Positions 7,471 to 22,767 of a stretch of 64,000 bases of DNA are shown one piece after another. The stretch's first letter is position 1. Every line of letters starts with the position of its first letter. The stretch is from Bordetella parapertussis (GTDB taxonomy: Bacteria; Pseudomonadota; Gammaproteobacteria; Burkholderiales; SG8-39). Location of the stretch: NCBI GenBank assembly GCA_945892985.1, contig CAMDDU010000001.1, forward strand, positions 75,960 through 139,959, in the 5' to 3' direction. The position numbers and the translations under genes are program-made. Under the pieces are notes generated by a model. It worked only from the letters and a program-made list of their open reading frames with translations. It had not been told where the DNA came from and made no database searches.

Positions 7471-7558
7471 AGCTACTCTCCCGAAAATGAAACTGCTGAT
7501 ATTGATCTAACAGGAAGCAAAAACCGCGGACAAGGACCGCCGACTTTGCAGGCCATCC

Positions 7559-8239
7559 TCATTTTTGTCCGTCACCCACCTTGATTTCTGAGACCTTCAT
7601 GCCGCCAACGCGCGCATGTACGCGCGGGCCGGTGGTCATCGCCAGAATATACACAATTTCATCCGGCCGGGGCGCGTCCGGAACACCCATCTCCACCGAG
7701 TCAAAATGGCTGCGCACATAGGCGGCTTCGCGATGGTGGATGGGAATGTCTATGCGCGTGCCGGCAGCCCCGACCTTGCCCGCCGACGGAACAATAGCCT
7801 TCGAGTTGTCGAGCAGTTCCCTCATGCCATAGCCGCCAGGTACATGCCAGAGCGCGCAGTGTTCGGTCTCACCGGCCGTGCCGACAATGGCGCCTTTGCC
7901 ATAGGCCTCGATCTTTTTCGCTCCGCCCAGCGCGGCGATCAGGCGTGCCGCCATATCCAATCCCAGCGGTTTCATCGCTTCCATCAGTGGCATGATGTCG
8001 TCAACATAGCCGCCCGCGTACGGATTCTTGATCACTACGGCAATCGCGCCGCGACGGTGCGGTGTTTTCGCCACCGGTCCGCCTTCGTGGCTGATGTCCT
8101 CGACCATCAGTACTATCTTGCGAATCTCAACTTTGGGTGCCTTGCTTGCCCCGGCGGCCTTGCCGGCCTTGGACACCTTTGACGCCTTGGAGACCTTAAG
8201 GCCCTTGACCGCGTTTTTCGACTTCGCTTTACCCGCCAT
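7559..8239 (-). CDS. Amino acid synthesis family protein (DUF1185 / AA_synth) with an N-terminal Lys/Ala-rich extension of about 36 aa
   Basis: 226 aa. The core (IRKIV..VEDISHEGG, NPYAGGYV, YGKGAIVGTAGETEHCALWH, VRSHFD, DAPRPDEI) matches my memory of PF06684 proteins. A strong SD (GGGAGG) lies 6 nt before ATG 8239, so the tail is likely translated. Confidence 0.8.
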   Translation of the reverse strand: MAGKAKSKNAVKGLKVSKASKVSKAGKAAGASKAPKVEIRKIVLMVEDISHEGGPVAKTPHRRGAIAVVIKNPYAGGYVDDIMPLMEAMKPLGLDMAARLIAALGGAKKIEAYGKGAIVGTAGETEHCALWHVPGGYGMRELLDNSKAIVPSAGKVGAAGTRIDIPIHHREAAYVRSHFDSVEMGVPDAPRPDEIVYILAMTTGPRVHARVGGMKVSEIKVGDGQK

Positions 8240-8260
8240 TGCCGCCTCCCTGATTCATGT

Positions 8261-9124
8261 TCATGAATGTGCCAGTTCCGTCGACGCACCTGCGCGAAGC
8301 GCGCGCTCTGGCGCGAGCATGCGAACTCGTTGCTGCAAAAACAGCGCTGCACCACGCACCAGTCCCGCGGCGATGAGCTCTTTCGCCTTGGCGTGCCCCC
8401 GGTCAAGGGCTTGGTCTATTTTCTCCGGCGACAGCGGCCCCACTGCTATCGTCACCAGGCGCGCTCCAAGATCACTGTCATCCTTGATCGAACACGCCGG
8501 TTTGCGCGCGATGACAGCGTCATCGACATTGACCGCGTTGGCGATAATCGTCGCCGCCGCATCCGCGGCGGCGGCGTTGACGGCAAGCACCGTTACGCTG
8601 TCGGCGATGCCAAGGCTAAAACTCCTGCCCCGCCATCCGCTTGTGGCCACGCCGCCGATGCCGGCATTGGCGCCAACCGAGATGTGGCCGGCCATCTTTT
8701 CGAATCCCTGCGCCACACCAACCTTGAATACCTCTCCCGGCCCGAGATGAAGGGCGATGTCGCCGCCATTATTGACGTAGGCCTTTCTAATGTCGCCGTC
8801 CACCAGGGCATCCAACACCTCATCGGACACAGCCCCGGCCACTGCGGCCATCGGCGTGATGAAGACTTCGCGATAAGGCCAGCAGGCCTTAAGCATGCGG
8901 CGCGCCACGGGGCCGCGCACCGGTTGCGCCTGTGCCACGTCGCGTCGCAGCAGCGACAATTCGCCACTCAAGACTTCCAACAGTCGCTGAAACCGCTGCC
9001 AGGCGCGTTCATACGCAAGCCTTACCGCCTCGGCGTCGCCCTGAGCCTCGATAATCAGATCGATGGGGCCGTGCTGAAAATGGGCACGCGCCCCATCGAG
9101 CATCGCGAATAACGGGCCGCTCAT
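8261..9124 (-). CDS. UPF0280 family protein (ApbE-superfamily-like), function unknown
   Basis: 287 aa. The N-terminal HFQHGPIDLIIEA and the overall size recall UPF0280 proteins. There is an ATGA overlap with the upstream 522-aa gene. Assignment is from memory. Confidence 0.6.
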   Translation of the reverse strand: MSGPLFAMLDGARAHFQHGPIDLIIEAQGDAEAVRLAYERAWQRFQRLLEVLSGELSLLRRDVAQAQPVRGPVARRMLKACWPYREVFITPMAAVAGAVSDEVLDALVDGDIRKAYVNNGGDIALHLGPGEVFKVGVAQGFEKMAGHISVGANAGIGGVATSGWRGRSFSLGIADSVTVLAVNAAAADAAATIIANAVNVDDAVIARKPACSIKDDSDLGARLVTIAVGPLSPEKIDQALDRGHAKAKELIAAGLVRGAALFLQQRVRMLAPERALRAGASTELAHS

Positions 9125-10689
9125 GGCTTCACCGGATCATCCGAGACGACATCGGCCGCGACGAGGGGCCACGGGTTCGCCGCATCCCAATCAATGATCT
9201 TGTGTTGCGCCGTCGACAGTACGGCTTCGAGCGACTGCACCCGGTCCATATGGCCGCCAAGCTGCTCGTAATCGGCAAGCTTCATACTGAACTCCACCGG
9301 CGCGACAATGGCCGGCGTTGGCACCCAGCCAAAGGATTGATCGGGCATTTTCATCACATCGGTCATCACCATGATGCCGCCACCGGGCCAGACGTAAGCC
9401 GGCGCGCCACCGCAGGTGACCTGGACCAGTGCATCTTTGATCGAGAGCGTCAGCGCGATGGGGTTTTCTGTCACACCCGCGCGCAGAGATCCTCCCGCCC
9501 CGCCCATGAAGAGCACCGTACAAAGCGCCGGTTCGCAATTCTCGCCGATGCGATCGACGACTTTCTTGATCGCTGCGGGCATGTCAGCCGGCTGCGGTTG
9601 CAGCTTGTCATCAAGAATGAAGTAGGCCCAATCCTCCCCTGTGGTCGACACAAAGAGGATGCGTTCGCCAGGCCATGCCGTCTTCGGATCGATGGCTTTG
9701 ATGATTTTCAGCGGATCGGTAATATCCGTCCCTCCCCAGCCCGCGCCGGGATTAGCGACCTGGAAGTAGCGGCCGGGCGTGGACTTGCGGCCTATGACCT
9801 TGACGCCGCCATCGCGCATGCCGAGGAACTTGCCCGCCTGATGCTCGGACAGCACGCCGGTGATGTGATCGTCCACCACCACCACCTCGTCAACGTGGCC
9901 CTCCCACTGCTTGGCGAAAATGCCAATAGTGGCGGAGCCGCAGCCGACCCGCATGCGCTGTTCCTCCACACCGTTGATGATCGGCGCCCTACCCGCCTGC
10001 ACGACGATCTTTGCCCCGCCTTCGATGTCCAGTTCAACCGCCAGCTTGTTGCCGAGCGCCATCATCACGTCGCAGGTGACGCGGCCTTCTTTTTTGCTTC
10101 CGCCGGTGAGATGGTGAACGCCACCGATAGACAGCATTTGCGAGCCGTACTCGATGGTCGTGACGTGCCCGACTGCCTCACCGTCAACGCGGATGGTCGC
10201 CTGTTCCGGACCAAGATAGCGGTCGGTGTCGATTTTCAGCTTGAAACTGCAGTAACTGAAAATGCCCTCAGTCACCACCGTGACCATATCGACGCCATGA
10301 TGCTTTGACGAAACAATAAACGGTGCCGGCTTGTAGTCCGGATACGTCGTCCCAGAGCCCACGCCGGACACAAACAGCTCTTGCGCATCGCCGCCGGACT
10401 CGGGGTTTGCGAGTACCACCTCCTGGAAAGGCGCGACAGGATTGCCGTTCCAGCCGGCATCGCTGGAAAAGCGCACCAGGCGGGGGTTTTCAGCCGGTCG
10501 TCGCATCAACACCAGCGGATCGACGCGGGTCAGCACGCCCGCCACGTTGGCATAGCGGTCGCAGGCGCCGGAACGTCCGGCTGTGATATTGCAAAGTACC
10601 GGGCAGGCGTTGCAGACAATTTTTCCTGATCCGGCTTCGACGGCATCAGGAATCAGATCCGGAGCCGGATCCGCATGGGTGGTCGCCAT
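9121..10689 (-). CDS. Fe-S protein of the family annotated as 6-hydroxynicotinate reductase (Hnr-like)
   Basis: 522 aa. It has an N-terminal Cys cluster CNACPVLCNITAGRSGACDRY and Gly-rich stretches (VGCGSATIG, MGGAGGS). GAAGGAG lies upstream of the ATG. The family name is recalled from annotations, not verified. Confidence 0.6.
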   Translation of the reverse strand: MATTHADPAPDLIPDAVEAGSGKIVCNACPVLCNITAGRSGACDRYANVAGVLTRVDPLVLMRRPAENPRLVRFSSDAGWNGNPVAPFQEVVLANPESGGDAQELFVSGVGSGTTYPDYKPAPFIVSSKHHGVDMVTVVTEGIFSYCSFKLKIDTDRYLGPEQATIRVDGEAVGHVTTIEYGSQMLSIGGVHHLTGGSKKEGRVTCDVMMALGNKLAVELDIEGGAKIVVQAGRAPIINGVEEQRMRVGCGSATIGIFAKQWEGHVDEVVVVDDHITGVLSEHQAGKFLGMRDGGVKVIGRKSTPGRYFQVANPGAGWGGTDITDPLKIIKAIDPKTAWPGERILFVSTTGEDWAYFILDDKLQPQPADMPAAIKKVVDRIGENCEPALCTVLFMGGAGGSLRAGVTENPIALTLSIKDALVQVTCGGAPAYVWPGGGIMVMTDVMKMPDQSFGWVPTPAIVAPVEFSMKLADYEQLGGHMDRVQSLEAVLSTAQHKIIDWDAANPWPLVAADVVSDDPVKP

Positions 10690-10836
10690 CAGGGCTCCTT
10701 CGTGCCAAAGCTACCATCGCTGTCATCGCTGCAATAGGACTCACCCGTGTTGCCGGGATTCAAACAGGACATTGGCGAGACCATGCGGCCCCCGGAGTGA
10801 GGCCCACGACGGGCGCCGGCGCAATGGCTACCCGGT

Positions 10837-13605
10837 TCACGCTTTTTGATCCCGCAACAGCTTACGCAGACGGTCGGGCGTTGCTGGCGCGTGGCGGACG
10901 ATCACCCCGGTGGCGTGGCGTATGGCGCCGAATATGGCCGGCGCGGTGGCGATCAGCGCCGGTTCGCCCACGCCTTTGGCGCCGTACGGGCCCAGCGGTT
11001 CGGCATCCTCGACCAGGAACACGTCTATTGGCGGGATGTCGCCGATGGTAGGAATAAGGTAATCGTGCAGGTTGTCGGTCTTGCCGGCCTGGTAATCCTC
11101 CATCAGCGCGAAGCCCAGCCCCTGCGCCACGCCGCCGTGGATTTGGCCTTCCACTTGGGTCAGGTTGAGTGCCCGGCCGACATCGTGGGCGGCGCCTATG
11201 CGCAACACCTTTACCGTGCCCAGCTCGATATCGACTTCCACCTCGGCCATTTGCGCGGCAAAGGCATAGGTTGCGTAAGGCACGCCCTGCCCGTCCTTGT
11301 CCAGCGCGATGGTCGGCGGATTAAACGTGCCCTCGCCGGTGAGGACGTTGCCGCGCTCGTCGCAGGACAGCTCGGACAGATTGATGCGATGTTCACCCGC
11401 GCTGTCGCTGGCGATGAGTTCGCCATGTTCCAAGCGAAGTTTGGCGTCGGCTTTGGCCTCCACCAGCGCGAGCATGCGCGCGCGCAACTGCTCGCCGGCA
11501 AGGCGTGATGCGCTGCCCGAAACAAAGGCCTGGCGCGAGGCCGAGGTCTTGCCCGCGTCTGCGGTAAGGTCGGTGTCGCCCATGACAAAATCAATGTCTG
11601 ACATGCGCAGACCCAGCGCGTCGGCCAGCACCTGCAGCAGCGTGGTGTTGGAACCCTGGCCAATGTCGACCGCGCCGTTGTAAAACATGATGCGGCCCTT
11701 GCGCGTCAGGCCGGCGCGAAGTGTCGACGGATTGGCCATGCCGGTATTGCCGCAGCCATACCACATGCAGGCGACACCAACGCCGCGGCGCACTTTGCCG
11801 GCCTTGCCCGCCAGATTGAACGCTTCGCATTCGGCCTGCGCCTTGAGCCAGCGCGGCTTGAGCGCTTTGAGGCATTGGTCCAGGCCGGCGCTGGCCTTGA
11901 GCACCTGGCCGGTGGCCGTGGCCTGGCCGGCGCGAAGGGCATTGATGAGCCGGAACTCCAGCCTGTCGATGCCGGTCTTTTCTGCCAGGTCGTCGAGCAG
12001 GGTTTCATGCGCGATGGTCGATTGCGGCACGCCAAAACCGCGAAACGCCCCGGCGATGGCGTTGTTGGTATAGACGGCGCGCGTCGCTGCCCTGAAGTGC
12101 GGAACGAAATACGGGCCGGAGGCGTGAATCGGCACGCGATTGGCGACGGTAGTGCCCCAGGAGGCATACGCGCCGGTGTTGAAGTCGCCCTCAAAATCGG
12201 CGGCGAGCAGCCGCCCTTTTGCGTCACAGGCAAAACGCACCTGCATGGCGGCCGGATGACGTTTGGTCGTCGAGACCATGGTCTCGGGCCGGGAATACAC
12301 CCCGCGCACCGGACGCTTGAGCTTCCACGCCGCCACCGCCAGCATCGGCTGGATGGCAATGTCGAGCTTGCCGCCGAAGCCGCCGCCCACCGCCGAGGGG
12401 ATGATGTGTACCTGCGTTGCCTGCAGTTTCAGGATGCGCGCGACTTCATCGCGGTCCATATAAGGCGTCTGGGTGCAGGCGAATATGCGTATGCGCTCCA
12501 CGCCCTTCTCGGTGATGCACTCGGCATAACCGGCCTCGGGCTCGATATAGCCGTGTTCCACATGACTGGTGGTGAACCGCCCTTCGGCGACAAAAGCCGC
12601 GGCGGCCAGCGCCTTGGCGGCGTCTCCCTTTACCACGCGACCGTGTATCAGCACGTTGTCGGGATTATTGGCGTGCAAGGGCTCGCGCGTGTCGGCCAGC
12701 GCCTGCTCCGATTCGAGCAGTGGCACTTGTACCTGCCAGGTGACGGGCACCTCCTCGTCGCGAACGCGCAGCAGGGTTTCGTAATCGCCGACCAACGCAC
12801 ACAGCGCTTCGCCGCGAAACCTGACCCGCATATCGCCGAAGACCGGCTGGTCTTTCACATCCGGGAAGGTGCCAAAGCTGTTTTCCGCCACGTCACGCGC
12901 GGTGACAATATCCACCAGGCCCGGGTATTTGGCCAACAGCGGCTTGAAATCGCCAAAGGAAAATGTCGCCCGCGCGTGCGGCGAACGCACCGCGCGCAGC
13001 CACAGCGAACCTGCTGGCGCCTTGTCCGCGCCGTACAGTTCGGCGCCGGTCAATTTGGCCATGCCATCGGTCTTGGGCGCGCGGCTGCCGACCGCCTCGC
13101 CCGCCGCCGGCTCATCCACAGCGAGATCGCCCATGGCCACCGCCAGCACCGCTTCGATGATCTTGCGATAGCCGGTGCAGCGGCACAGCACGCCACCCAG
13201 CGCATCCTGCACCGCCTGCTCGTCCGGGTTGGCGTTGCGTGCCAGCAGGTCGGTTGCGGCCATCAGCATGCCCGGCGTGCAAATGCCGCATTGCGCCGCG
13301 CCATGCTTGTGAAAAGCCTGCTGCAGGGCATTGAGCTTGCCGTCGGCCCCGGCAAGGCCTTCCACAGTGGTGACCGAGCGCCCGGCGCACTGGCCCAGGC
13401 CGACGATGCAGGAACACACCTGCTGCCCGTCCAGCAGTACGGTGCAGGCGCCGCAGTCGCCGGCGTGGCAGCCGATTTTGGTTCCGGTAAGGCCCAACTC
13501 GTCACGCAATACGTCGGACAGGCGACTTGCCGGATGCGCCTGCGCTGTGACCGGTTTGCCGTTGACTCGCAGTTCGGTGGACATGTTTTGCGCCGGCTTG
13601 TTCAT
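10837..13605 (-). CDS. Xanthine dehydrogenase/aldehyde oxidase family hydroxylase: N-terminal 2x[2Fe-2S] (CoxS-like) domain fused to the molybdopterin-binding (CoxL-like) subunit
   Basis: 922 aa from ATG 13605, which makes an ATGA overlap with the FAD-subunit stop. Motifs CHAGDCGACTV and CGICTPG...CRCTGY mark the two 2Fe-2S clusters. A long MoCo domain follows (GGGFGGK, GQG motifs). The track ORF extension to 14196 lies inside the FAD gene and I rejected it. Confidence 0.88.
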   Translation of the reverse strand: MNKPAQNMSTELRVNGKPVTAQAHPASRLSDVLRDELGLTGTKIGCHAGDCGACTVLLDGQQVCSCIVGLGQCAGRSVTTVEGLAGADGKLNALQQAFHKHGAAQCGICTPGMLMAATDLLARNANPDEQAVQDALGGVLCRCTGYRKIIEAVLAVAMGDLAVDEPAAGEAVGSRAPKTDGMAKLTGAELYGADKAPAGSLWLRAVRSPHARATFSFGDFKPLLAKYPGLVDIVTARDVAENSFGTFPDVKDQPVFGDMRVRFRGEALCALVGDYETLLRVRDEEVPVTWQVQVPLLESEQALADTREPLHANNPDNVLIHGRVVKGDAAKALAAAAFVAEGRFTTSHVEHGYIEPEAGYAECITEKGVERIRIFACTQTPYMDRDEVARILKLQATQVHIIPSAVGGGFGGKLDIAIQPMLAVAAWKLKRPVRGVYSRPETMVSTTKRHPAAMQVRFACDAKGRLLAADFEGDFNTGAYASWGTTVANRVPIHASGPYFVPHFRAATRAVYTNNAIAGAFRGFGVPQSTIAHETLLDDLAEKTGIDRLEFRLINALRAGQATATGQVLKASAGLDQCLKALKPRWLKAQAECEAFNLAGKAGKVRRGVGVACMWYGCGNTGMANPSTLRAGLTRKGRIMFYNGAVDIGQGSNTTLLQVLADALGLRMSDIDFVMGDTDLTADAGKTSASRQAFVSGSASRLAGEQLRARMLALVEAKADAKLRLEHGELIASDSAGEHRINLSELSCDERGNVLTGEGTFNPPTIALDKDGQGVPYATYAFAAQMAEVEVDIELGTVKVLRIGAAHDVGRALNLTQVEGQIHGGVAQGLGFALMEDYQAGKTDNLHDYLIPTIGDIPPIDVFLVEDAEPLGPYGAKGVGEPALIATAPAIFGAIRHATGVIVRHAPATPDRLRKLLRDQKA

Positions 13606-14444
13606 GCCGCGATCCTCGCCAGCGCGCGCTTGAGCAGGGTCTGCACCACATCCAGGCGGTATTCGGCCGTACCGCGTACATCGGCAATCGGGCTGAGCGG
13701 CTGCAAATCGGCTGCCGTGACCAGATCGGCCAAGGATGGTGTGAGGCGTTTGCCGGTGAGTTTTTGCTCCAGCCCCGGCAGGCGTTGCGCCACCGCGGAA
13801 CAGGCGCCCACGGCGATGCCGCAACGCGTGATGAGACCGTTCGCATCGACGGCGATGACAGTGGACACCATGGCAATGGATATCACCAGGTATTTGCGCG
13901 AGCCGAGCTTGAAAAAATCGGCACGCGTTCCGGCCGGCCACTTGGGCACGCGCAGACCGGTCACCAGTTCGTCCGGCTTGCGCGCTGTCTTGCGATTGGC
14001 GAGCAAGAACGCCGCCAGCGGCAGGCTGCGCAGGCCTTGCGGGCCGGCCAGTTGCACGTCGGCATTGAGCGCCAGCAGGGCCGGGACGCCGTCGGCCGCA
14101 GGCGAGGCGTTGCAGATATTGCCGGCAAGCGTGCCGGTATTCTGTATTTGCACACCGCCGACCTCGCGCGCCGCCAGTTTCAGGCCGGCAAAGCACTCGG
14201 GCAAGGCCGCCTGAATGAGTTCGCTCCAGGTCACCAGCGCACCAATGTGCCAGTAGTCTGCGTCCGCCACCTCGCGAATTCCGCGCAGGTCGTCAATGCG
14301 GCTGATATCAAGCACATCCTCTTCTATCAAGCGCCCCACCCGCGCCGGATAGAAGTCGGTGCCACCGGCAAGCACCACATAGGGCTTGGACGACAAAGCG
14401 GAAAAAGCTTCGGTCAGACGGGTCGGGCGCAGGTATTGGCTCAT
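13602..14444 (-). CDS. FAD-binding subunit of the molybdenum hydroxylase (CoxM/XdhB-like)
   Basis: 280 aa. VLAGGTDFYP and TLAGNICNASPAADG are classic FAD-binding molybdopterin-dehydrogenase motifs. Confidence 0.88.
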   Translation of the reverse strand: MSQYLRPTRLTEAFSALSSKPYVVLAGGTDFYPARVGRLIEEDVLDISRIDDLRGIREVADADYWHIGALVTWSELIQAALPECFAGLKLAAREVGGVQIQNTGTLAGNICNASPAADGVPALLALNADVQLAGPQGLRSLPLAAFLLANRKTARKPDELVTGLRVPKWPAGTRADFFKLGSRKYLVISIAMVSTVIAVDANGLITRCGIAVGACSAVAQRLPGLEQKLTGKRLTPSLADLVTAADLQPLSPIADVRGTAEYRLDVVQTLLKRALARIAA

Positions 14445-14680
14445 TCTGGTATTCCAAGGATGGGGTCATGTTTTAAGTAAACGCTTCAAACCGGGCTCTA
14501 CTGTAGCCCAGCCTTGAAGCTATTTCAACGGCTTATCGCATCCTTCTCGGCTGCCCTTGCGCGCCAGCCCGGACACCGGTGCGTCTGCGGCCGATACAGC
14601 CGGAGGGCGGATTGCAGGCACTAGGAAAATACTTTAAGCTTGAAGCAATTGCCGGGCGAGCATCGTCGGGCACCCGGCCC

Positions 14681-14697
14681 TGGCATCGCGGATGCCA
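14681..14697 (+). promoter_or_regulatory. Palindromic TGGCATCGCGGATGCCA element; weak sigma54 -24/-12-like pattern or operator
   Basis: The GG and GC are spaced as in TGGCAC-N5-TTGC, but the -12 element is ATGC. It is a perfect 7-nt-arm palindrome 38 nt upstream of the OYE-gene ATG. Confidence 0.3.
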
Positions 14698-14734
14698 GCC
14701 TGGAACCGCAACGCTCAGGATCACCCGCGCAAGC

Positions 14735-16195
14735 ATGTGGAAGCCGCCGCAGCGAATCAAGTTTCATCCCAACCCAGGCCGGGTGCCCTCGGCAGAGGAA
14801 GCTGGCGCATCGCGACTCTTCAGCACCGCGCGCATCGGCGCGCTCGAACTGGAGCAACGCACCTGGGTCCCGGCGATGGTGCCGTGGCGCTCTAACGAAG
14901 ACGGTGTTGTCACCGCAGATGTGCTGCAATGGTACGAGCGCTTTGCGCGTGGACGCCCCGGGGCGATAGTCATCGAAGCAACGGGCATACGCGACATCCC
15001 CAGCGGGCCGCTGCTGCGCATCAGTCACGACCGCTACATCGCCGGCCTGCGCGAACTGGTTGAGACGATACGCCGCGCCAGCGCAGGGCATACGCGGGTC
15101 TTCATCCAGATCATCGATTTCCTCAGCATCCGCCGCCGTCCCGAAGCGGAAAAATTCTTCCAGCGGTTTTTGCGGATAAGCGAGCGCCATCGTGCACGCC
15201 TGAACGCCGTCGACTGGCCCGAACAGGCGATCCGTGACCATCTCGCAGCCCTTCCGGAAGCCGATTTGGAAAGCATACTGGACGCGCGCGAATGGGAAGC
15301 GCTGCAATTCGGCGCGCGCGAACGCGTGACCGACATGGCCTTGCCGCACATCCGGGCCTTACCGCAAACCCTTCCCGCCCTGTTTTCTGACGCCGCAAGG
15401 CGTGCCCAAGGGGCCGGATTCGACGGTGTGGAACTGCATTACGCCCACGCCTACACCATGGCGTCCTTCCTCTCGGCGATCAACAATCGCGCCGACGGCT
15501 ACGGTGGCAGCCGCGAGAACCGTGTGCGGCTTCCGCTCGAGGTCTACCAGGCGGTCAGGCAGGCCGTCGGCCCCGATTACGTCGTCGGCTGCCGTTACCT
15601 CGCCGAAGAATGCATTGAAGGCGGCAACACCGTCGAGGACGCAAGCTGGTTCGGTGTCGAATTTGCCCGGGCCGGCATGGATTTTATTTCCACCTCGCGT
15701 GGCGGCAAATTCGATGACGCAAAACAGCCGGGTGTCGGCTCATCGGCCTATCCCTACACCGGACCCAGCGGTTATGAGTGCATGCCGCAATATTTGTCAG
15801 ATGAATTCGGCCCGTTCGGCCGCAATATCGCGCCAACGGCGGCGATACGCCGCGCCATCCGCGACGCCGGCCTGCCAACCCCTGTGGTGTGTACCGGAGG
15901 CGTGCATAATTTCGACATGGCGGAGGCGATGCTGGAGCGCAATGACTGCGACATTGTCGGCACGGCAAGACAAAGTCTCGCCGACCCGGACTGGACGCTG
16001 AAAACGCTGCTCGGACTGGGTCATGAGGTGCGCTTGTGCGAGTACACCAATTATTGCGAAGGCCTCGACCAGAAGCACAAGCAGGTTACCTGCCAGCTGT
16101 GGGACCGCCAGCAGACAGATGAACCGGGTATCCGCCTGAGCAGTGACGGCAAACGCCGCCTGACCGCCCCGCCCTGGACGCCGCCGGCGGGTTGA
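14735..16195 (+). CDS. Old Yellow Enzyme family NADH:flavin oxidoreductase (FMN TIM barrel only)
   Basis: LFSTARIGALELEQRTWVPAMV, AIVIEATG, GFDGVELHYAHAYTMASFLS and the RADGYGGSRENRVR motif are OYE-like. I chose ATG 14735. The longer track ORF from 14579 begins in the divergent intergenic region. The start is uncertain. Confidence 0.82.
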   Translation: MWKPPQRIKFHPNPGRVPSAEEAGASRLFSTARIGALELEQRTWVPAMVPWRSNEDGVVTADVLQWYERFARGRPGAIVIEATGIRDIPSGPLLRISHDRYIAGLRELVETIRRASAGHTRVFIQIIDFLSIRRRPEAEKFFQRFLRISERHRARLNAVDWPEQAIRDHLAALPEADLESILDAREWEALQFGARERVTDMALPHIRALPQTLPALFSDAARRAQGAGFDGVELHYAHAYTMASFLSAINNRADGYGGSRENRVRLPLEVYQAVRQAVGPDYVVGCRYLAEECIEGGNTVEDASWFGVEFARAGMDFISTSRGGKFDDAKQPGVGSSAYPYTGPSGYECMPQYLSDEFGPFGRNIAPTAAIRRAIRDAGLPTPVVCTGGVHNFDMAEAMLERNDCDIVGTARQSLADPDWTLKTLLGLGHEVRLCEYTNYCEGLDQKHKQVTCQLWDRQQTDEPGIRLSSDGKRRLTAPPWTPPAG

Positions 16196-17832
16196 TGTTC
16201 GCCCCACTGCAGCACACCGGTTACGCCGACAGCTTCGCGCGCGACCATCTGCCACCGCGCGAACAGTGGCCGGAAATGATTTTCGAGTTGCCGGAATTAA
16301 TCTATCCGGACCGCCTCAATTGCGCCGCGGCGTTTGTCGACACGCACGTCGCGAGCGGACACGGCTCCGCAACCGCATTGATCGGTGCCGAGGAACGGCT
16401 GGACTACGCCGCCTTGCAGGCACGCGCCAATCGCATCGCCAGGGTGTTGACCGAGGACCTCAAGCTTCCCAGCGGCAGCCGGGTGCTGCTGCGCAGCGGC
16501 AATAAGCCCTTCCTCGCGGCAAGCTGGCTGGGCGTTATCAAGGCCGGCTGCATCGCTGTGACGACCATGCCGCTACTGCGCGAGCGCGAGCTTTCGACCA
16601 TTGTGCGCAAGGCAAACATCGCCGCAGCTATTTGTGATCACGCGCTGGCGGCGGAAATGGATCTCACCCGCTCGGCCAGCCCCGGATTGCGCAGCGTGCT
16701 GTACTTCAGCGCTCCCGCCGGACACCCTGACCGGATCGAGCCGCTTATGGAGCGCAAGGCGGCGACCTTTACCAACGTCGATAGCGCCGCCGACGACGTG
16801 GCGATGATCGCCTTCACCTCCGGCACCACAGGCGTACCCAAGGGAACCATGCATTTCCATCGCGACGTCCTGGCTATTTGCGACGTGTTGTCGCACCAGA
16901 TCATCGCGCCGCACCCGACCGATGTGTTCATCGGCACCCCGCCGCTCGCCTTCACCTTCGGCCTTGGCGGCCTGTTTTTATTCCCCTTACGCGCAGGTGC
17001 CGCCAGCGTGCTGATCGAGCAATGGACGCCGGAAAGCCTGCTGCAGGGCATTGCGCGTTTCAAGACCAGCGTCTGCTTTACTGCGCCGACCTTCTATCGC
17101 AAGATGGCGCCGCTCGCCAAAAACCACGACCTGCGCTCCCTGCGCATTGCCGTTTCTTCGGGCGAAATGCTGCCCGCGGACACGCGCACCGCCTGGCGCG
17201 AGGCCAGCGGCATTGAAATGACCGAGTGCCTGGGATCGACCGAACTGCTGCACGCCTTCATCGCCTGCAAACCCGGCGACATCCGCCCCGGCGCCACCGG
17301 CCGCGTCGTGCCCGGCTACCGCGCCTGCGTTCTTGGCGAGGACGGCCAGCCCCTGCCGCCGGGAACCATCGGCCGTCTTGCCATTAAAGGTCCTACCGGG
17401 TGCCGCTACCTTGACGACGCACGCCAGCTCAGCTACGTGCAAAACGGCTGGAACCTGACCGGTGACGCCTACCTCATGGACGAAGACGGTTACTACTGGT
17501 ACCAGTCGCGCACCGACGACATGATCATCAGCGCCGGCTACAACATTGCCGGGCCCGAGGTCGAGGACATACTGTTGACCCATCCTGCGGTGGCCGAGTG
17601 CGGCGTCGTCGGCGTGCCAGATGCTGCACGCGGACAAATCGTCAAGGCCTATGTTGTTCTGCGGCCCGGCCACAAGCCTGACGAAGCCACAACGCTTGTC
17701 CTGCAGGCATTGGTAAAAAATACCATCGCCCCCTATAAATATCCGCGTGCTGTAGAGTTCGTCGCAGCACTGCCGCGTACCGAGAATGGAAAAATCCAGC
17801 GCTACAAGCTGCGGCGCGGCGAACTCGCCTGA
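16195..17832 (+). CDS. AMP-forming aryl-CoA ligase, 2-aminobenzoate/benzoate-CoA ligase-like
   Basis: About 545 aa. The N-terminus ADSFARDHLPPREQWPEMIFELPELIYPDRLNCA resembles aminobenzoate-CoA ligases. The AMP motif is AFTSGTTGVPKG. It has a C-terminal GKIQRYKLR. There is a TGATG overlap with the OYE gene. Confidence 0.85.
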   Translation: MFAPLQHTGYADSFARDHLPPREQWPEMIFELPELIYPDRLNCAAAFVDTHVASGHGSATALIGAEERLDYAALQARANRIARVLTEDLKLPSGSRVLLRSGNKPFLAASWLGVIKAGCIAVTTMPLLRERELSTIVRKANIAAAICDHALAAEMDLTRSASPGLRSVLYFSAPAGHPDRIEPLMERKAATFTNVDSAADDVAMIAFTSGTTGVPKGTMHFHRDVLAICDVLSHQIIAPHPTDVFIGTPPLAFTFGLGGLFLFPLRAGAASVLIEQWTPESLLQGIARFKTSVCFTAPTFYRKMAPLAKNHDLRSLRIAVSSGEMLPADTRTAWREASGIEMTECLGSTELLHAFIACKPGDIRPGATGRVVPGYRACVLGEDGQPLPPGTIGRLAIKGPTGCRYLDDARQLSYVQNGWNLTGDAYLMDEDGYYWYQSRTDDMIISAGYNIAGPEVEDILLTHPAVAECGVVGVPDAARGQIVKAYVVLRPGHKPDEATTLVLQALVKNTIAPYKYPRAVEFVAALPRTENGKIQRYKLRRGELA

Positions 17833-17852
17833 ATAACACGGAGAAAGACATC

Positions 17853-18593
17853 ATGAGCACCCCCAAGCAGATGGACCGCTACAACGCTCTGATGGACGTG
17901 GTACGTAACCGCATGACCACGCGCCAATTCGACTCCTCCTACGTTGTGCCGCGCGAACATTATGAGCTGATACTGGATGCGGCCCGCCACGGCCCTTCCG
18001 GCGCGAACGCCCAGCCTTGGCATTACATCGTGGTGAGCAAGCCAGAAACCAAAGAGGCGATTGCCGATTATTTCGTCGAAGAACAGCGGCTGCGCGCCAA
18101 ACTGAAGATGAAGTTCCCGACGCCCAACTACCGCGGCCTCGAAGACGCACCCGGATTCATCGTCGTCGCTTCGGACTTTCGCTGGACGCGCGCTTTTCCG
18201 GTGCTCATGGACGGGTCGGATCTGGACAAGCAATACCATGAGAATGCCGAGCGCATCCTGCTTCAGTCGGTCGCGGCATCAACCATGTCGGCCCATCTCG
18301 CGGCGGCCGCACTCGGTTACAACGTCTGGTGGGTCACGGCCATCGGCCAGGAATCGGCCCAGAACGCGCTTAAACCGCTGCTTGGCATTCCGGACGATCT
18401 GGCGGTAATAGACATCTTTCTGTTCGGGCCGCCGGCCAAACCACCGTACAAGCGCTGGAAAAAAACCCTGCCACAAATCATGAATTGGGACAGATTCAAC
18501 ATGGACAACTACATGTCCGTGGAACAGATCGATGAATGGGTGCGCGAAAAACGTCACCATGTGATGTACAAGGACGAGAGCAAGATCGACTGA
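17853..18593 (+). CDS. Nitroreductase-fold flavoprotein
   Basis: 246 aa. RMTTRQFD and AARHGPSGANAQPWHYIVV are typical of the nitroreductase family. It starts 20 nt after the ligase stop. Confidence 0.8.
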   Translation: MSTPKQMDRYNALMDVVRNRMTTRQFDSSYVVPREHYELILDAARHGPSGANAQPWHYIVVSKPETKEAIADYFVEEQRLRAKLKMKFPTPNYRGLEDAPGFIVVASDFRWTRAFPVLMDGSDLDKQYHENAERILLQSVAASTMSAHLAAAALGYNVWWVTAIGQESAQNALKPLLGIPDDLAVIDIFLFGPPAKPPYKRWKKTLPQIMNWDRFNMDNYMSVEQIDEWVREKRHHVMYKDESKID

Positions 18594-18721
18594 GGCCCCC
18601 TTGCGGACGCCAAACCGGGGTTGGGGCAAGGCTGGAAGCCGCCGTCGAATAACCCCACGAAATATACGGCCTAATTTAATTTTTTAACCGTTTGGTTAAA
18701 ACCGGCGCCTATGGCAGGCGC

Positions 18722-18750
18722 TGGAAAGAGGCAGTTTATTCGGCTATAAT
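18722..18750 (+). promoter_or_regulatory. Candidate sigma70 promoter of fdxA (TGGAAA-N17-TATAAT)
   Basis: A perfect TATAAT at 18745..18750 with a weak -35 (TGGAAA) 17 nt upstream, in an AT-rich intergenic region 70 nt before the fdxA ATG. Confidence 0.4.
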
Positions 18751-18772
18751 CCAAGCAAATTACGACCTAGCA

Positions 18773-18798
18773 CGCAGTTAAGCAAACACTTAACTGCG
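18773..18798 (+). promoter_or_regulatory. Perfect 10-nt-arm inverted repeat in the fdxA leader (CGCAGTTAAG-caaaca-CTTAACTGCG)
   Basis: Read directly from the sequence. It lies between the putative -10 box and the fdxA start codon (18820). It could be an operator or an RNA hairpin. Confidence 0.5.
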
Positions 18799-18819
18799 CC
18801 GTTTTAGCCAGAGGATGCC

Positions 18820-19143
18820 ATGACCCACGTTGTTACCGAAAGCTGCATCAAGTGCAAGCACACCGACTGCGTAGATGTCTGCCCAGTTGATTGTTTCAAG
18901 GAAGGCCCGAACTTCCTCGTCATTGATCCTGACGAGTGCATCGACTGTGCCGTCTGTATTCCCGAATGTCCCGTGAACGCCATTTTTGCCGAAGAAGATC
19001 TGCCGGCCGGCCAGGAAAAATTCACCGCACTGAACGCTGATCTGGCCAAGATCTGGCCGCTGATTACCGACACCAAGCCCGCGCTACCGGACGCTGAAAA
19101 ATGGGCCGATGTGACGGACAAGCTGCAATACCTCGAAAAGTAA
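18820..19143 (+). CDS. fdxA: 7Fe ferredoxin ([3Fe-4S][4Fe-4S], Azotobacter FdI type)
   Basis: 107 aa. [26 protein letters not shown]...[16 protein letters not shown] is the canonical FdxA pattern. Confidence 0.93.
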
Positions 19144-19239
19144 CACCGCCCCGGTCCCGGACAACCGGGAAGTACCCGGTAGCGCAATTTTTCTAGACTC
19201 CCGCCTGTTGCGCGGCTGCCCCGCAGCGGGAGTGACAGG

Positions 19240-22200
19240 ATGCCATCCATGCCCACACTCTCGCTGGCCCACGGCCTCGCCTTTTCCGATTTGTATTGCC
19301 GCGACGGTCTGTCGCGCATCGATGCCGCGTTTCTCTCCTGGCTTGGCGACGCGGATCCCGAACTCGTCGCCCGCCTATCCGCCGCGCGCGCAGAGCCCGA
19401 TGCCCTCGCCAAAAAGGACGAGTCGGCCCTGATTCTCGCTGCAGGGCCGCACCTTGATGACTTTGTCGCAGACTTGTTCGGCATAGCCGGCGAAGTAAGG
19501 GCGCTTTCCGCACGGCATCATGTTCTAGCGCCCATCTACACAATCAAACGCCAGTTCGTGCAACGCAAAGCGCTTGCGAAATACAAAGCCGAGGCCGCTG
19601 CAGGATTTGACGGCGCAGCACTGGAGGCGACGCTGACAAACCGCTTTGGCCACGCGTTCAGCGAGCTGGCCTACGCCGAGGCAATCGAAACCTGGCTAAA
19701 GGACGAGCCCACCAACGAAGAGTCCATAGATCTCGCCCTGCGTTACGCCGCTTGGGCCTTGCTCACCCCGGCCGGTCGCGAGCGCAACCAGGCTGGTGTG
19801 CTGTTCAAGACGGCAGCCAAGCTCGATCCGCAAAACCTTCTGCCGCACGCGCAAAAGCATGAAACGAACGGGTTGACCACGTTCACCATCAAGCCCGAAC
19901 ACATCCGCCGGCGCGAAGGATTCGCACTCACCGACAAGGGCAGCGATCTCACCGGCGCCTTATCGGAGGCCAACTATTGCATCTGGTGCCACACTCAGGG
20001 CAAGGATTCCTGCTCCACCGGTCTGAAAGAAAAGGCCGGGCCCGACGGCAAAGCTGCATTCAAGAAAAATTCCTTCGGCACCACGCTCGCGGGCTGTCCG
20101 CTGGAGGAAAAGATTTCCGAATTCCACACGCTCAAGGTGGCCGGACACGCGTTGTCGGCGCTGGCCGTCATCACCGTCGACAACCCGCTAGCCGCAGCGA
20201 CGGGGCACCGCATCTGCAACGACTGCATGAAATCCTGCATCTACCAGAAACAGGAACCTGTCAATATTCCCCAGGTCGAAACACGCACGCTCAAGGATGT
20301 GCTGGAACTGCCCTGGGGCTTTGAGATCTATTCGCTGCTGACGCGCTGGAACCCGCTCAATATCCGCCGCCCGTTGCCGCGCGCCAGCACCGGCTACCGC
20401 GTACTGGTCGCAGGCATGGGGCCGGCCGGCTTCGCGCTCTCGCACCACCTTATGAACGACGGCCACGCGGTGGTGGGCATAGACGGCCTCAAGATAGAAC
20501 CGCTGCCGCCGCATTTGTCGGGCGTCAACGCAGACGGAAGCCGCGCCCGCTTCGATCCGGTGCATGACGTCAACATACTCTACGAAGCCCTGGGCGAAAG
20601 AACCATGGCCGGCTTCGGTGGCGTGGCGGAATACGGCATTACAGTGCGCTGGGACAAGAATTTTCTCAAGGTCATCCGCCTGCTGCTCGAAAGACGCGCC
20701 GAGTTTGCCTTGTTTGGCGGCGTGCGCTTCGGCGGCACGCTCACTTCGGATGACGCCTTTGGCATGGGCTTCGACCACATCGCGCTGGCTATGGGCGCCG
20801 GCAAGCCGACAGTACTGGATATCCCCAACGGCCTTGCCCGCGGCGTGCGCACCGCCTCAGACTTCCTGATGGCACTGCAACTGACCGGTGCGGCCAAGCC
20901 CGACTCCATCGCCAACATGCAAGTGCGCCTGCCCGTTGTCGTCATCGGTGGCGGCCTTACCGCCATCGACACCGCAACCGAATCACTCGCCTATTACCCC
21001 ATACAGACGGAAAAATTCCTGCAGCGCTATGAAGTGCTGGCCAGGGAAAAGGGCGAAGACGCAGTGCGCGCATCCTGGAGCCCGGAAGAGCGCGAGATCG
21101 CCGAGGAATTCCTCGCCCACGCCCGTGCCATCCGCAAGGAGCGCGCCACCGCTGCGACCCAAAATCGCGAGCCTCACATCATTGAATTGCTCCGCTCCTG
21201 GGGCGGCGCAACCATAGCCTACCGCCGCCGCCTGCTCGACAGCCCCTCTTACACGCTCAATCACGAAGAGGTGGAAAAAGCGCTGGAAGAAGGCATCAGC
21301 TTCGCCGAGGCCCTTACGCCGCTGTCGGTCGACGTAGATGATTATGCCGCGGCGCGCGGCATCAACTTCACCCGCCAGGCCATGGGCGAGGATGGCAAGT
21401 GGGTCAGCACAGGTGAGCTTCACCTGCCGGCCAGTACGATTTTTGTTGCCGCAGGCACCTCGCCCAACACCGTGCTGGCGCGCGAGCACCCGCAACACTT
21501 TGGCACTGACGGCAAGTACTTCCAGGCCTGCGACGAAAACGGCCTGCCGCTCAAGCCGCAGTTCTCCATATCCAAACCGGAAAAAATAGACGTGCTGCTG
21601 TCGCGCGTGGCGGACGGCCGCTTTGTTTCCTTTTTCGGTGACCTGCATCCCTCGTACTTCGGCAACGTCGTCAAAGCCATGGGCAGTGCAAAACAAGGCT
21701 ACCCGGTGGTGACCCATGTGCTGGGCAAGCACCCCCCGGCCAGCAAAGCGGACAACGCCGCTTTCTTTGCCGCGCTGGCGGGCGACCTGCTCGCAACGGT
21801 CGAGCGCGTCGAGCGCCTCACGCCAACGATTGTTGAAATCGTGCTCAAGGCGCCGCTCGCAGCGCGAAAATTCCGTCCCGGCCAGTTTTACCGCCTGCAG
21901 AACTTTGAGACCCTGTCCCCGGTAAGCCACGGTACGCGGCTGCAAATGGAAGGACTTGCGCTCACTGGCGCATGGACCGATCCTGCCAAGGGTCTGGTGT
22001 CGACCATCGTTCTGGAAATGGGAGGATCCGCCGATTTGTGCGCCATGTTAAAGCCAGGCGAACCAGTCGTATTGATGGGCCCGACCGGAACACCAACCCA
22101 TATCGCACCCAATGAAACGGTGATCCTCGTCGGCGGCGGCCTTGGCAATGCCGTGCTGTTCTCCATCGGACAGGCTTTCCGCACCCAGGGATCGAAGGTA

Positions 22201-22767
22201 CTTTATTTTGCCGGCTACAAGAAAGTTATAGACCGCTACAAGGTCAGGGACATCGAGGCTGCAGCAGACGTCATTGTCTGGTGTTGCGACGAACAGCCCG
22301 GGTTCACGCCGGGGCGCCCCCAAGACCGGTCTTTTGTCGGCAACATCGTCCAGGCCATGGATGCGTATGCCTCCGGACGACTTGGAAGCCCCGAGATCGC
22401 CATGACCGAGGCCGACCGCCTCATCGCCATCGGCTCCGATCGCATGATGTCAGCCGTTGCCCGCGCCCGGCACGAGGTGTTGAAGCCGCACCTCAAGCCG
22501 CATCATTTCGCCATCGGTTCAATCAACTCGCCAATGCAGTGCATGATGAAAGAAATCTGCGCGCAATGCCTGCAACCGCAGCGCGATCCGCATACCGGCA
22601 AGATCAGCTATGTCTTCTCCTGCTTCAACCAGGATCAGGACCTCGACTGCGTCGACTTTGCCGGATTATCCGAACGCTTGACGCAGAATTCAATGCAGGA
22701 AAAGCTGACCAAGCAATGGCTCGCCTACTGCATGCCTGATTTGAAAAAGCAGCGCAGCCTGGTCTGA
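19240..22767 (+). CDS. Large multidomain oxidoreductase: unknown N-terminal domain (about 230 aa), Cys-rich Fe-S segment, GltD/NfnB-like FAD/NAD(P) domain, and C-terminal PyrK/NfnA-like ferredoxin-reductase module
   Basis: 1175 aa. Cys motifs are CIWCHTQGKDSC and CNDCMKSC. The dinucleotide fold is RVLVAGMGPAGFALSHHL. YGITVRWDK and MGAGKPTVLDIPNG are GltD-like. The C-terminal part (FRPGQFYRLQNFE, VILVGGGLGNAVLFSIG, final CMMKEICAQC) is PyrK-like. Confidence 0.8.
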   Translation: MPSMPTLSLAHGLAFSDLYCRDGLSRIDAAFLSWLGDADPELVARLSAARAEPDALAKKDESALILAAGPHLDDFVADLFGIAGEVRALSARHHVLAPIYTIKRQFVQRKALAKYKAEAAAGFDGAALEATLTNRFGHAFSELAYAEAIETWLKDEPTNEESIDLALRYAAWALLTPAGRERNQAGVLFKTAAKLDPQNLLPHAQKHETNGLTTFTIKPEHIRRREGFALTDKGSDLTGALSEANYCIWCHTQGKDSCSTGLKEKAGPDGKAAFKKNSFGTTLAGCPLEEKISEFHTLKVAGHALSALAVITVDNPLAAATGHRICNDCMKSCIYQKQEPVNIPQVETRTLKDVLELPWGFEIYSLLTRWNPLNIRRPLPRASTGYRVLVAGMGPAGFALSHHLMNDGHAVVGIDGLKIEPLPPHLSGVNADGSRARFDPVHDVNILYEALGERTMAGFGGVAEYGITVRWDKNFLKVIRLLLERRAEFALFGGVRFGGTLTSDDAFGMGFDHIALAMGAGKPTVLDIPNGLARGVRTASDFLMALQLTGAAKPDSIANMQVRLPVVVIGGGLTAIDTATESLAYYPIQTEKFLQRYEVLAREKGEDAVRASWSPEEREIAEEFLAHARAIRKERATAATQNREPHIIELLRSWGGATIAYRRRLLDSPSYTLNHEEVEKALEEGISFAEALTPLSVDVDDYAAARGINFTRQAMGEDGKWVSTGELHLPASTIFVAAGTSPNTVLAREHPQHFGTDGKYFQACDENGLPLKPQFSISKPEKIDVLLSRVADGRFVSFFGDLHPSYFGNVVKAMGSAKQGYPVVTHVLGKHPPASKADNAAFFAALAGDLLATVERVERLTPTIVEIVLKAPLAARKFRPGQFYRLQNFETLSPVSHGTRLQMEGLALTGAWTDPAKGLVSTIVLEMGGSADLCAMLKPGEPVVLMGPTGTPTHIAPNETVILVGGGLGNAVLFSIGQAFRTQGSKVLYFAGYKKVIDRYKVRDIEAAADVIVWCCDEQPGFTPGRPQDRSFVGNIVQAMDAYASGRLGSPEIAMTEADRLIAIGSDRMMSAVARARHEVLKPHLKPHHFAIGSINSPMQCMMKEICAQCLQPQRDPHTGKISYVFSCFNQDQDLDCVDFAGLSERLTQNSMQEKLTKQWLAYCMPDLKKQRSLV

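Follow-up and report, generated by a model that had tools for sequence, protein, structure and literature searches.

A putative aryl-CoA module of an old yellow enzyme and a ligase beside a molybdenum hydroxylase cluster

When genes for the CoA activation of an aromatic acid stand back to back with a molybdenum (Mo) hydroxylase operon, do the two take part in one pathway or do they only share a place on the chromosome? The question is raised by a 64,000-nucleotide stretch (the window) of contig CAMDDU010000001.1 (positions 75,960 to 139,959 of the forward strand; assembly GCA_945892985.1), listed as Bordetella parapertussis and placed by GTDB in SG8-39 within the order Burkholderiales, in which three consecutive genes (the triad) encode a flavin mononucleotide (FMN) protein of the old yellow enzyme (OYE) family, an AMP-forming aryl-CoA ligase, and a nitroreductase-fold protein. 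They diverge from an operon for a xanthine-oxidase-family Mo hydroxylase and an Hnr-like protein, here called the Mo/Hnr cluster. A preliminary description of the window proposed a hybrid route for an aromatic or N-heteroaromatic carboxylate, in which the OYE and the ligase would work together with the Mo hydroxylase, the Hnr-like reductase, and HyuAB. From the comparison of sequences and gene neighbourhoods, we consider it moderately probable that a widespread aryl-CoA module of two genes, for anthranilate-type activation and reduction, forms the core of this genus-specific operon; the module would have been relocated to this site and would not be integral to the Mo-hydroxylase pathway. For the original proposal the main value of the analysis is corrective. 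The operon appears to be a variant of a known aryl-CoA hybrid-pathway module.

The 2-furoyl-CoA dehydrogenase is one xanthine-oxidase-family enzyme that is linked to CoA thioesters. Another is 4-hydroxybenzoyl-CoA reductase (PDB 1rm6), which acts on a CoA ester according to the citing passage in PMC3958847, and plasmid pAL1 carries a Mo-dependent quinaldine 4-oxidase, of an upper pathway leading to anthranilate, together with anthranilate-CoA genes (PMC3534580). With 4-hydroxybenzoyl-CoA reductase and pAL1 as precedents, the preliminary description, which recognised no described pathway that unites CoA activation with Mo hydroxylation, an Hnr-like reductase, and HyuAB, put the case too strongly as regards CoA activation and Mo hydroxylation. 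The aerobic 2-aminobenzoyl-CoA (“hybrid”) pathway of Azoarcus/Aromatoleum evansii, found also in Arthrobacter sp. Rue61a (PMC3534580), comprises a 2-aminobenzoate-CoA ligase and a monooxygenase/reductase (EC 1.14.13.40). The lower part of the anthraniloyl-CoA pathway is listed as unknown, and a pathway-annotation tool omitted the route for lack of knowledge (PMC9007349). Anthranilate is also the product of the iad locus of Variovorax, which converts indole-3-acetate (PMC9613470; bioRxiv 10.1101/2022.11.01.514793) and whose gene list includes MarR, IorAB, Rieske alpha and beta subunits, an AMP ligase, a thiolase, a short-chain dehydrogenase/reductase (SDR), and a cyclase (PMC12852158).

Genomic contexts of the OYE–ligase pair and of the Mo/Hnr cluster

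Orthologues of the window OYE occur in at least 599 places of species-representative genomes, the best 80 of which were studied with 10-kb flanks. These loci belong to Alpha-, Beta-, and Gammaproteobacteria and Acidobacteriota (64–84% identity), and conservation between phyla amounts to about 65–70% identity. Neighbouring genes were clustered de novo and assigned with Pfam and NCBIfam; the counts given here come from a stricter tblastn search. An AbmG-type ligase lies no more than 10 kb from the OYE at 17 of the 80 loci, and a fused FAD-monooxygenase/OYE enzyme (anthraniloyl/salicylyl-CoA monooxygenase-reductase) is present at 14, its representative passing the family model NF006101 with 1186 bits (cut-off 1078). 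Other recurrent neighbours are RidA (19 loci), an acyl-CoA dehydrogenase (20), an SDR (25), MarR (20), an IorA-like protein (15), a cyclase (9), and a Rieske alpha subunit (15) that resembles the Variovorax auxin dioxygenase AdgI (7YLS_B, 338 bits). At least one of the ligase, the fused enzyme, the Rieske subunit, an Ior-like gene, and the cyclase accompanies the OYE at 46 of the 80 loci.

The gene order in Gammaproteobacteria and Acidobacteriota runs from the fused monooxygenase/reductase through an SDR, MarR, an enoyl-CoA hydratase, an acyl-CoA dehydrogenase, and RidA to the OYE, so that the OYE orthologues sit inside clusters reminiscent of the 2-aminobenzoyl-CoA pathway. In Comamonadaceae (including Polaromonas) the OYE–ligase pair directly follows AdgI/AdgH-like Rieske genes and a Liv-type ABC importer, as would fit the iad/adg system of Variovorax, and further OYE loci share IorAB-like, thiolase-like, cyclase, SDR, and MarR genes with iadA–iadR. 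Since the neighbouring families match these two known systems, the module may be placed functionally with the network of anthraniloyl-CoA (abm) and indole-3-acetate (iad) degradation. The OYE is absent from the published iad gene list (PMC12852158), and a literature search for such a protein in clusters of either type turned up nothing specific; as far as the literature was searched, the OYE family itself is undescribed. Adjacency of OYE and ligase recurs in Alpha- and Betaproteobacteria; in the case from Gammaproteobacteria (Porticoccus, L079) the ligase sits on a long branch and is absent from the cleaned tree described below.

Relatives of these partners are encoded elsewhere in the genome to which the window belongs. 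The window itself holds no iad genes, and the triad operon, unlike the 2-aminobenzoyl-CoA pathway, encodes no FAD monooxygenase; contig C60 (L116 and L137) carries the genuine NF006101-type fused enzyme of this genome, a Liv-type ABC importer, RidA, and MarR with the genome's own AdgI/AdgH-like Rieske pair, and contig C87 begins with the gene for a second AbmG-type ligase (L115). The searches of this genome found no OYE orthologue besides the copy in the window and no match to the kynureninase family.

The complete layout of triad and Mo cluster is kept in three relatives (G001, G002, and G003), all of the same genus, and was not seen outside it. A Mo hydroxylase accompanies the OYE at one of the 80 loci, again in this genus, and Hnr, UPF0280, or AA_synth genes at none; near the 79 OYE loci outside the genus there is no Mo, Hnr, nitroreductase, UPF0280, or AA_synth gene. 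Six other genera of the family have OYE orthologues (64–71% identity) with no ligase, nitroreductase, or Mo gene beside them, two of which face nadE while one precedes an amidase gene. The nearest relatives outside the genus (G263 and G411) have an enoyl-CoA hydratase gene followed by OYE and ligase and nothing more of the window. In G263, a complete genome from another family of the same order, 2.2 Mb separate this three-gene set at 5.69 Mb (OYE and ligase at 81% and 80% identity) from a cluster of Mo, Hnr, UPF0280, AA_synth, ABC importer, and HyuA genes at 3.45 Mb.

The Mo/Hnr cluster also occurs in G017, G013, G022, and G004, and partly in G006; in the first four, flanks included, no AMP-binding/CoA ligase gene was found. 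All four have the gene for a 1175-amino-acid (aa) oxidoreductase no more than 7 kb from that for the Mo FAD subunit: it heads the Mo/Hnr operon itself in G013, and in G017 the order is Mo FAD gene, 226 bp, fdxA, and oxidoreductase. The oxidoreductase (window 18820–22767, fdxA included; L103:16212–19998; L105:15790–19254) is a recurring neighbour of Mo/Hnr genes and may be the electron supply of the Hnr-like reductase. Because the Mo operon of G017 directly adjoins these two genes, the window triad is read, relative to that genome, as an insertion between the Mo operon and its putative electron-supply genes. The FAD–fdxA spacer of G017, when aligned with the two spacers of the window, was too diverged to date the insertion.

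If the triad had been recruited into the Mo-hydroxylase pathway in this genus only, an aromatic or N-heteroaromatic carboxylate would be CoA-activated within one hybrid route, with the OYE and the Hnr-like reductase both fed by FdxA and the 1175-aa protein. We judge this unlikely. The position of the triad, precisely between genes that are direct neighbours in G017, the retention of this layout in the three congeneric genomes, the 290-bp divergent control region common to both units, and the precedents of 4-hydroxybenzoyl-CoA reductase and pAL1 all speak for it. So does a sample of 401 genomes of the order, in which three candidates per genome were scored: the Hnr-like gene is present in 39 of them (16 of 168 genera; always a single copy, orthologues 63–75% identical) and an OYE orthologue in five, the genome studied here included, and all four of the other OYE-positive genomes also carry the Hnr-like gene. 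This co-occurrence, however, is confined to two Hnr-rich families in whose genomes the two genes are unlinked, and is therefore not independent evidence. Against joint use stand the Mo/Hnr clusters of four other genera that lack a CoA ligase, the separation of the modules by 2.2 Mb in G263 and on different contigs in G017, and the 79 OYE loci that have none of the Mo, Hnr, UPF0280, or AA_synth genes nearby. The window resembles 4-hydroxybenzoyl-CoA reductase systems in that genes for an enzyme of the Mo-hydroxylase family and for an aryl-CoA ligase adjoin each other, but its Mo subunits fall far below the models for that reductase (406 bits, cut-off 995, for alpha; 78 bits, cut-off 405, for the other), and the enzyme is accordingly not assigned to the 4-hydroxybenzoyl-CoA reductase type.

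Co-conservation of the two operons in other genomes, on which the preliminary description had made its proposal depend in advance, does not extend beyond the genus. We regard the link between the triad and the Mo hydroxylase as a local feature of gene order, not as a new hybrid pathway. What stands of the earlier proposal is its other half: the OYE–ligase pair does look like part of an aerobic hybrid aryl-CoA route for an aromatic carboxylate, with a ligase of the 2-aminobenzoate-CoA ligase family and an OYE whose relatives are iron-sulfur (Fe-S) OYEs that act on CoA esters, and what falls away is the union with the Mo hydroxylase, Hnr, and HyuAB.

Some features of these loci stand apart from the comparison. 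In two related genera (L013:9473–11521 and L015:8793–10859) an orphan OYE gene is divergent from one for a glutamine-dependent NAD synthetase (CN_hydrolase and NAD_synthase domains). The Mo/Hnr cluster of G263 is collinear apart from an SDR gene (L140:13472–14212) that separates the Hnr-like gene from that for the FeS/MoCo subunit. In one locus without a Mo cluster, from an unrelated proteobacterial metagenome-assembled genome (L064:10001–15045), the OYE gene is immediately followed by that for a 61% identical homologue of the 1175-aa oxidoreductase; it is a single independent case of this adjacency.

Predicted properties of the OYE and the ligase

The OYE matches PF00724 (Oxidored_FMN) with 123 bits (cut-off 27), and its active-site triad H235-x2-H238-x-Y240 (ELHYAHAY), which in the family (His-x2-His/Asn-x-Tyr) serves in substrate binding and proton donation, aligns with ELHGAHGY of solved OYEs and of a FadH-like paralogue. 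In 12 orthologues from three proteobacterial classes these residues, three Cys of the tail, and Thr438 are invariant; the idea of an OYE without an active site was rejected on the invariance of H/H/Y. The tail (residues 435–453, C435-E-Y-T438-N-Y-C441-x11-C453, i.e., C-x2-T-x2-C-x11-C) corresponds, position by position, to C347-x2-C350-x2-C353-x11-C365 in the alignment with the two-domain FadH-like protein of this genome. The canonical CxxCxxC-x11/12-C motif is thus incomplete, with three of the four Cys at identical spacing and the second replaced by the invariant Thr438. We assign the tail to the [4Fe-4S] segment of the FadH/trimethylamine dehydrogenase/BaiCD class, with Thr in place of the second Cys.

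Like the FadH-type proteins (2,4-dienoyl-CoA reductase 1ps9, 2-naphthoyl-CoA reductase 6qkg, trimethylamine dehydrogenase, and BaiCD), a group that acts on CoA thioesters, the window protein passes directly from the OYE barrel to a cluster-binding segment, in which C435, C441, and C453 correspond to the first, third, and fourth Cys of CxxCxxC-x11-C. Unlike them it has, besides the Thr, a helical insertion at about residues 131–200 and a second insertion at 328–352 that carries an invariant Cys349, and it lacks the C-terminal FAD/NAD(P)H part, ending at residue 486 with no Pyr_redox domain found by Pfam. Models of two-domain proteins in NCBIfam reach only 122–151 bits against cut-offs of 793–1078, among them the BaiCD model (151 bits, cut-off 825), the mycofactocin OYE model (137 bits, cut-off 793), and NF006101 for 2-aminobenzoyl-CoA monooxygenase/reductase and salicylyl-CoA 5-hydroxylase (122 bits, cut-off 1078), to which only the OYE part aligns. 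The protein is about 38–45% identical to the OYE half of the fused monooxygenase/reductase and differs from it in the helical insertion and the tail of Fe-S type. An AlphaFold2 model has an overall predicted local distance difference test (pLDDT) score of 73, and Foldseek searches with it return generic OYE matches on top (TM score up to 0.79 on the target), with 2-naphthoyl-CoA reductase (6qkg) at rank 38. We classify the protein as an Fe-S OYE of FadH type that is truncated by loss of the FAD/NAD(P)H domains; it probably holds an Fe-S cluster and, as it has no FAD/NAD(P)H half of its own, probably needs an external electron donor.

In the ligase, Pfam identifies AMP-binding (PF00501, 229 bits) and AMP-binding_C (PF13193, 85 bits) domains. 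Among solved structures it comes closest to the anthranilate-CoA ligase 4wv3 (284 bits), with benzoate-CoA ligases next (about 250 bits), and the likeness spans the whole protein; relatives in the database carry the JGI label 2-aminobenzoate-CoA ligase. Two quick maximum-likelihood trees, the second after removal of ten long-branch rows (mis-called open reading frames and other ligase families), gave the same result. The window ligase falls within a clade of eight OYE-adjacent betaproteobacterial ligases (Shimodaira–Hasegawa-like approximate likelihood ratio test, SH-aLRT, 99–100 in both trees), and a separate clade of 16 contains 10 of the 12 ligases that adjoin the fused monooxygenase/reductase, together with the C87 copy of the same genome; the remaining two of the 12 form a pair outside both clades. 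The window ligase thus has a family likeness to the 2-aminobenzoyl-CoA pathway, being an AbmG-family ligase whose partner is an OYE-type reductase with a CoA ester as its presumed substrate, but differs in its position outside the fused-enzyme-adjacent ligases. We place it in a paralogous subfamily, an OYE-paired sister clade of the 2-aminobenzoate-CoA ligases (AbmG, EC 6.2.1.32).

A non-aromatic substrate, such as an alicyclic or unsaturated aliphatic acid, would make the OYE a FadH-like enoyl- or dienoyl-CoA reductase with no link to anthranilate. Consistent with this, the closest outgroups carry beside the pair only an enoyl-CoA hydratase, or a hydratase and a family III CoA-transferase, the top NCBIfam matches of the OYE are of FadH and BaiCD type, the ligase remains below the cut-off of the benzoate-CoA ligase model TIGR02262 (339 bits, cut-off 375), and many OYE loci are free of aromatic-pathway genes. 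We nevertheless find it quite improbable, given that the best solved relatives of the ligase are an anthranilate-CoA ligase and then benzoate-CoA ligases, that its sister clade consists of monooxygenase/reductase-linked ligases, that the comamonadacean pair stands directly after the auxin dioxygenase-like genes, and that 46 of the 80 OYE loci have an aromatic-type neighbour.

Layout of the operon and its third gene

The features of the locus are collected in Table 1. The OYE stop codon (TGA, 16193–16195) overlaps the ligase start codon (ATG, 16195–16197) as TGATG, and the nitroreductase gene begins 20 bp past the ligase behind a GGAG ribosome-binding site. The OYE start is placed at 14735 because all orthologue N-termini read MWKPPQRI and the open frame in G263 has only 487 aa. 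Within the divergent spacer a sigma70-like site was found on the minus strand (14528–14500), and none was found on the plus strand between 14445 and 14734; the sigma70-like promoter ahead of fdxA has 10 of 12 matches. Beyond the Mo subunits, which are encoded on the minus strand, lie the Hnr-like gene, a UPF0280/ApbE-like gene, AA_synth (DUF1185), a Liv-type ABC importer, and HyuA.

Table 1. Coordinates of the triad and of flanking features in the window
Feature	Coordinates	Strand	Basis
OYE-family FMN protein, 486 aa	14735..16195	+	Pfam PF00724, triad, Cys tail, AlphaFold2 model, Foldseek
AMP-forming aryl-CoA ligase, 545 aa; AbmG family, OYE-paired subclade	16195..17832	+	Pfam, 4wv3, trees
Nitroreductase-fold FMN protein, 246 aa	17853..18593	+	Pfam PF00881
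Divergent intergenic region, 290 bp, separating the OYE gene from that for the Mo-hydroxylase FAD subunit	14445..14734	.	No conserved coding sequence
AT-rich spacer, 226 bp, before fdxA; 3' limit of the three-gene unit	18594..18819	.	Sigma70-like promoter 18722-18750
Ferredoxin FdxA	18820..19143	+	NCBIfam NF045490, 161 bits (cut-off 135)
1175-aa oxidoreductase with GltD-like FAD/NAD(P)H part; PyrK-like part per earlier reading only	19240..22767	+	Pfam, NCBIfam
FAD subunit of the Mo hydroxylase (xanthine-oxidase family); opens the divergent operon	13602..14444	-	Pfam PF00941, PF03450
Fused [2Fe-2S]/MoCo subunit of the Mo hydroxylase	10837..13605	-	Pfam Fer2, Fer2_2, MoCoBD_1, MoCoBD_2
522-aa “Hnr-like” protein	9121-10689	-	No Pfam or NCBIfam match

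The structural statements of the preliminary description hold up well. Three plus-strand genes with the Pfam domains of an OYE, a ligase, and a nitroreductase-fold protein diverge from the Mo-hydroxylase operon, the first two are coupled by TGATG, and the OYE consists of an FMN barrel with a short Cys-containing tail and no FAD/NAD domain. The resemblance to 2-aminobenzoate/benzoate-CoA ligases, noted for the N-terminus of the ligase, extends over its whole length; the placement among aryl-CoA ligases that had been suggested as a check confirms the AbmG family and at the same time puts the protein outside the monooxygenase/reductase-linked clade. The range given for the operon, 14445–18593, does contain the three genes, but its first 290 bp are intergenic.

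The nitroreductase-fold protein matches PF00881 (82 bits, cut-off 23.5) and falls short of the BluB model TIGR02476 (50 bits, cut-off 150); its closest solved match has E = 4e-11. The gene is the sole copy in the genome and is linked to the ligase in this genus only, and none of the 80 OYE loci has a nitroreductase gene within 10 kb. Database relatives are at least 92% identical on contigs shared with relatives of the OYE and ligase and at most 85% elsewhere, and because of this fall the triad is taken to be limited to the genus. Orthologues in three other genera (74–80% identity) have unrelated neighbours, namely an acetyl-CoA-synthetase-like gene, RmuC with a metallo-beta-lactamase, and ABC-F with an enolase-superfamily gene. 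The family as a whole is strongly conserved (3140 relatives at E ≤ 1e-40, 80–85% identity outside the genus), and some sources name its members 5,6-dimethylbenzimidazole synthase despite the low BluB score.

It is very unlikely, in our view, that the three genes share no function at all and are a product of rearrangement, with the nitroreductase gene and possibly the pair expressed independently, for although nitroreductase orthologues stand in unrelated contexts elsewhere, OYE orthologues are orphan in several related genera, and fdxA has a promoter-like site of its own, the TGATG coupling and the 20-bp junction with its ribosome-binding site argue for one transcript, and the adjacency of OYE and ligase recurs in Alpha- and Betaproteobacteria.

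A putative place in anthraniloyl-CoA metabolism

If the operon is indeed an assembly around a relocated aryl-CoA module, the ligase would form the CoA thioester of anthranilate or of a closely related ortho-substituted aromatic acid, as its family and contexts suggest. The OYE, with FMN and a probable Fe-S cluster, would then reduce a C=C bond in a CoA-bound aryl, dienoyl, or enoyl intermediate with electrons from an external donor, plausibly a ferredoxin, and FdxA is a candidate carrier for both the Fe-S OYE and the Hnr-like reductase. Lying between the Mo/Hnr operon and its usual fdxA/1175-aa genes, the module would share with them at most a supply of low-potential electrons. It would belong with the abm and iad network, the rest of which would be encoded on other contigs of the genome, and the nitroreductase-fold gene, separately conserved, would have ended up downstream of the ligase in this genus alone.

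Several observations weigh against this reading. About 40% of the OYE loci are without aromatic-pathway neighbours, and some orthologues face nadE or an amidase gene. The acid of the ligase may differ from anthranilate, because the protein lies in a sister clade of the monooxygenase/reductase-linked ligases. The insertion parts the Mo operon from precisely those genes that would supply it with electrons, and its site is kept in three relatives of the genus; this could reflect selection for joint use, and the four OYE-positive genomes of the order sample that also carry the Hnr-like gene, although from Hnr-rich families, point the same way. For the OYE itself, the evidence for the Fe-S cluster consists of three Cys out of the canonical four, and the pLDDT of the model drops below 50 at residues 323–361 and 436–465, precisely the Cys-bearing segments.

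The recurrence of a conserved OYE in loci of anthraniloyl-CoA and auxin degradation makes it a concrete candidate for the missing steps of the lower pathway. We give a modest chance to the more specific idea that this family, with FMN and a site of three Cys and a Thr and without an NAD(P)H domain, is the missing ferredoxin-dependent reductase of the lower anthraniloyl-CoA pathway, and that in this genus it has been wired to the FdxA/1175-aa supply of the Mo/Hnr cluster.

A further context of the OYE was seen in five gammaproteobacterial genomes (L038, L042, L051, L053, and L057; approximately 6800–11450), where genes for the heavy and light chains of a methylamine/aromatic-amine dehydrogenase are followed by an AdgI-like Rieske alpha subunit and the OYE. 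In the same five genomes DksA and SMC genes lie downstream of the OYE unit.

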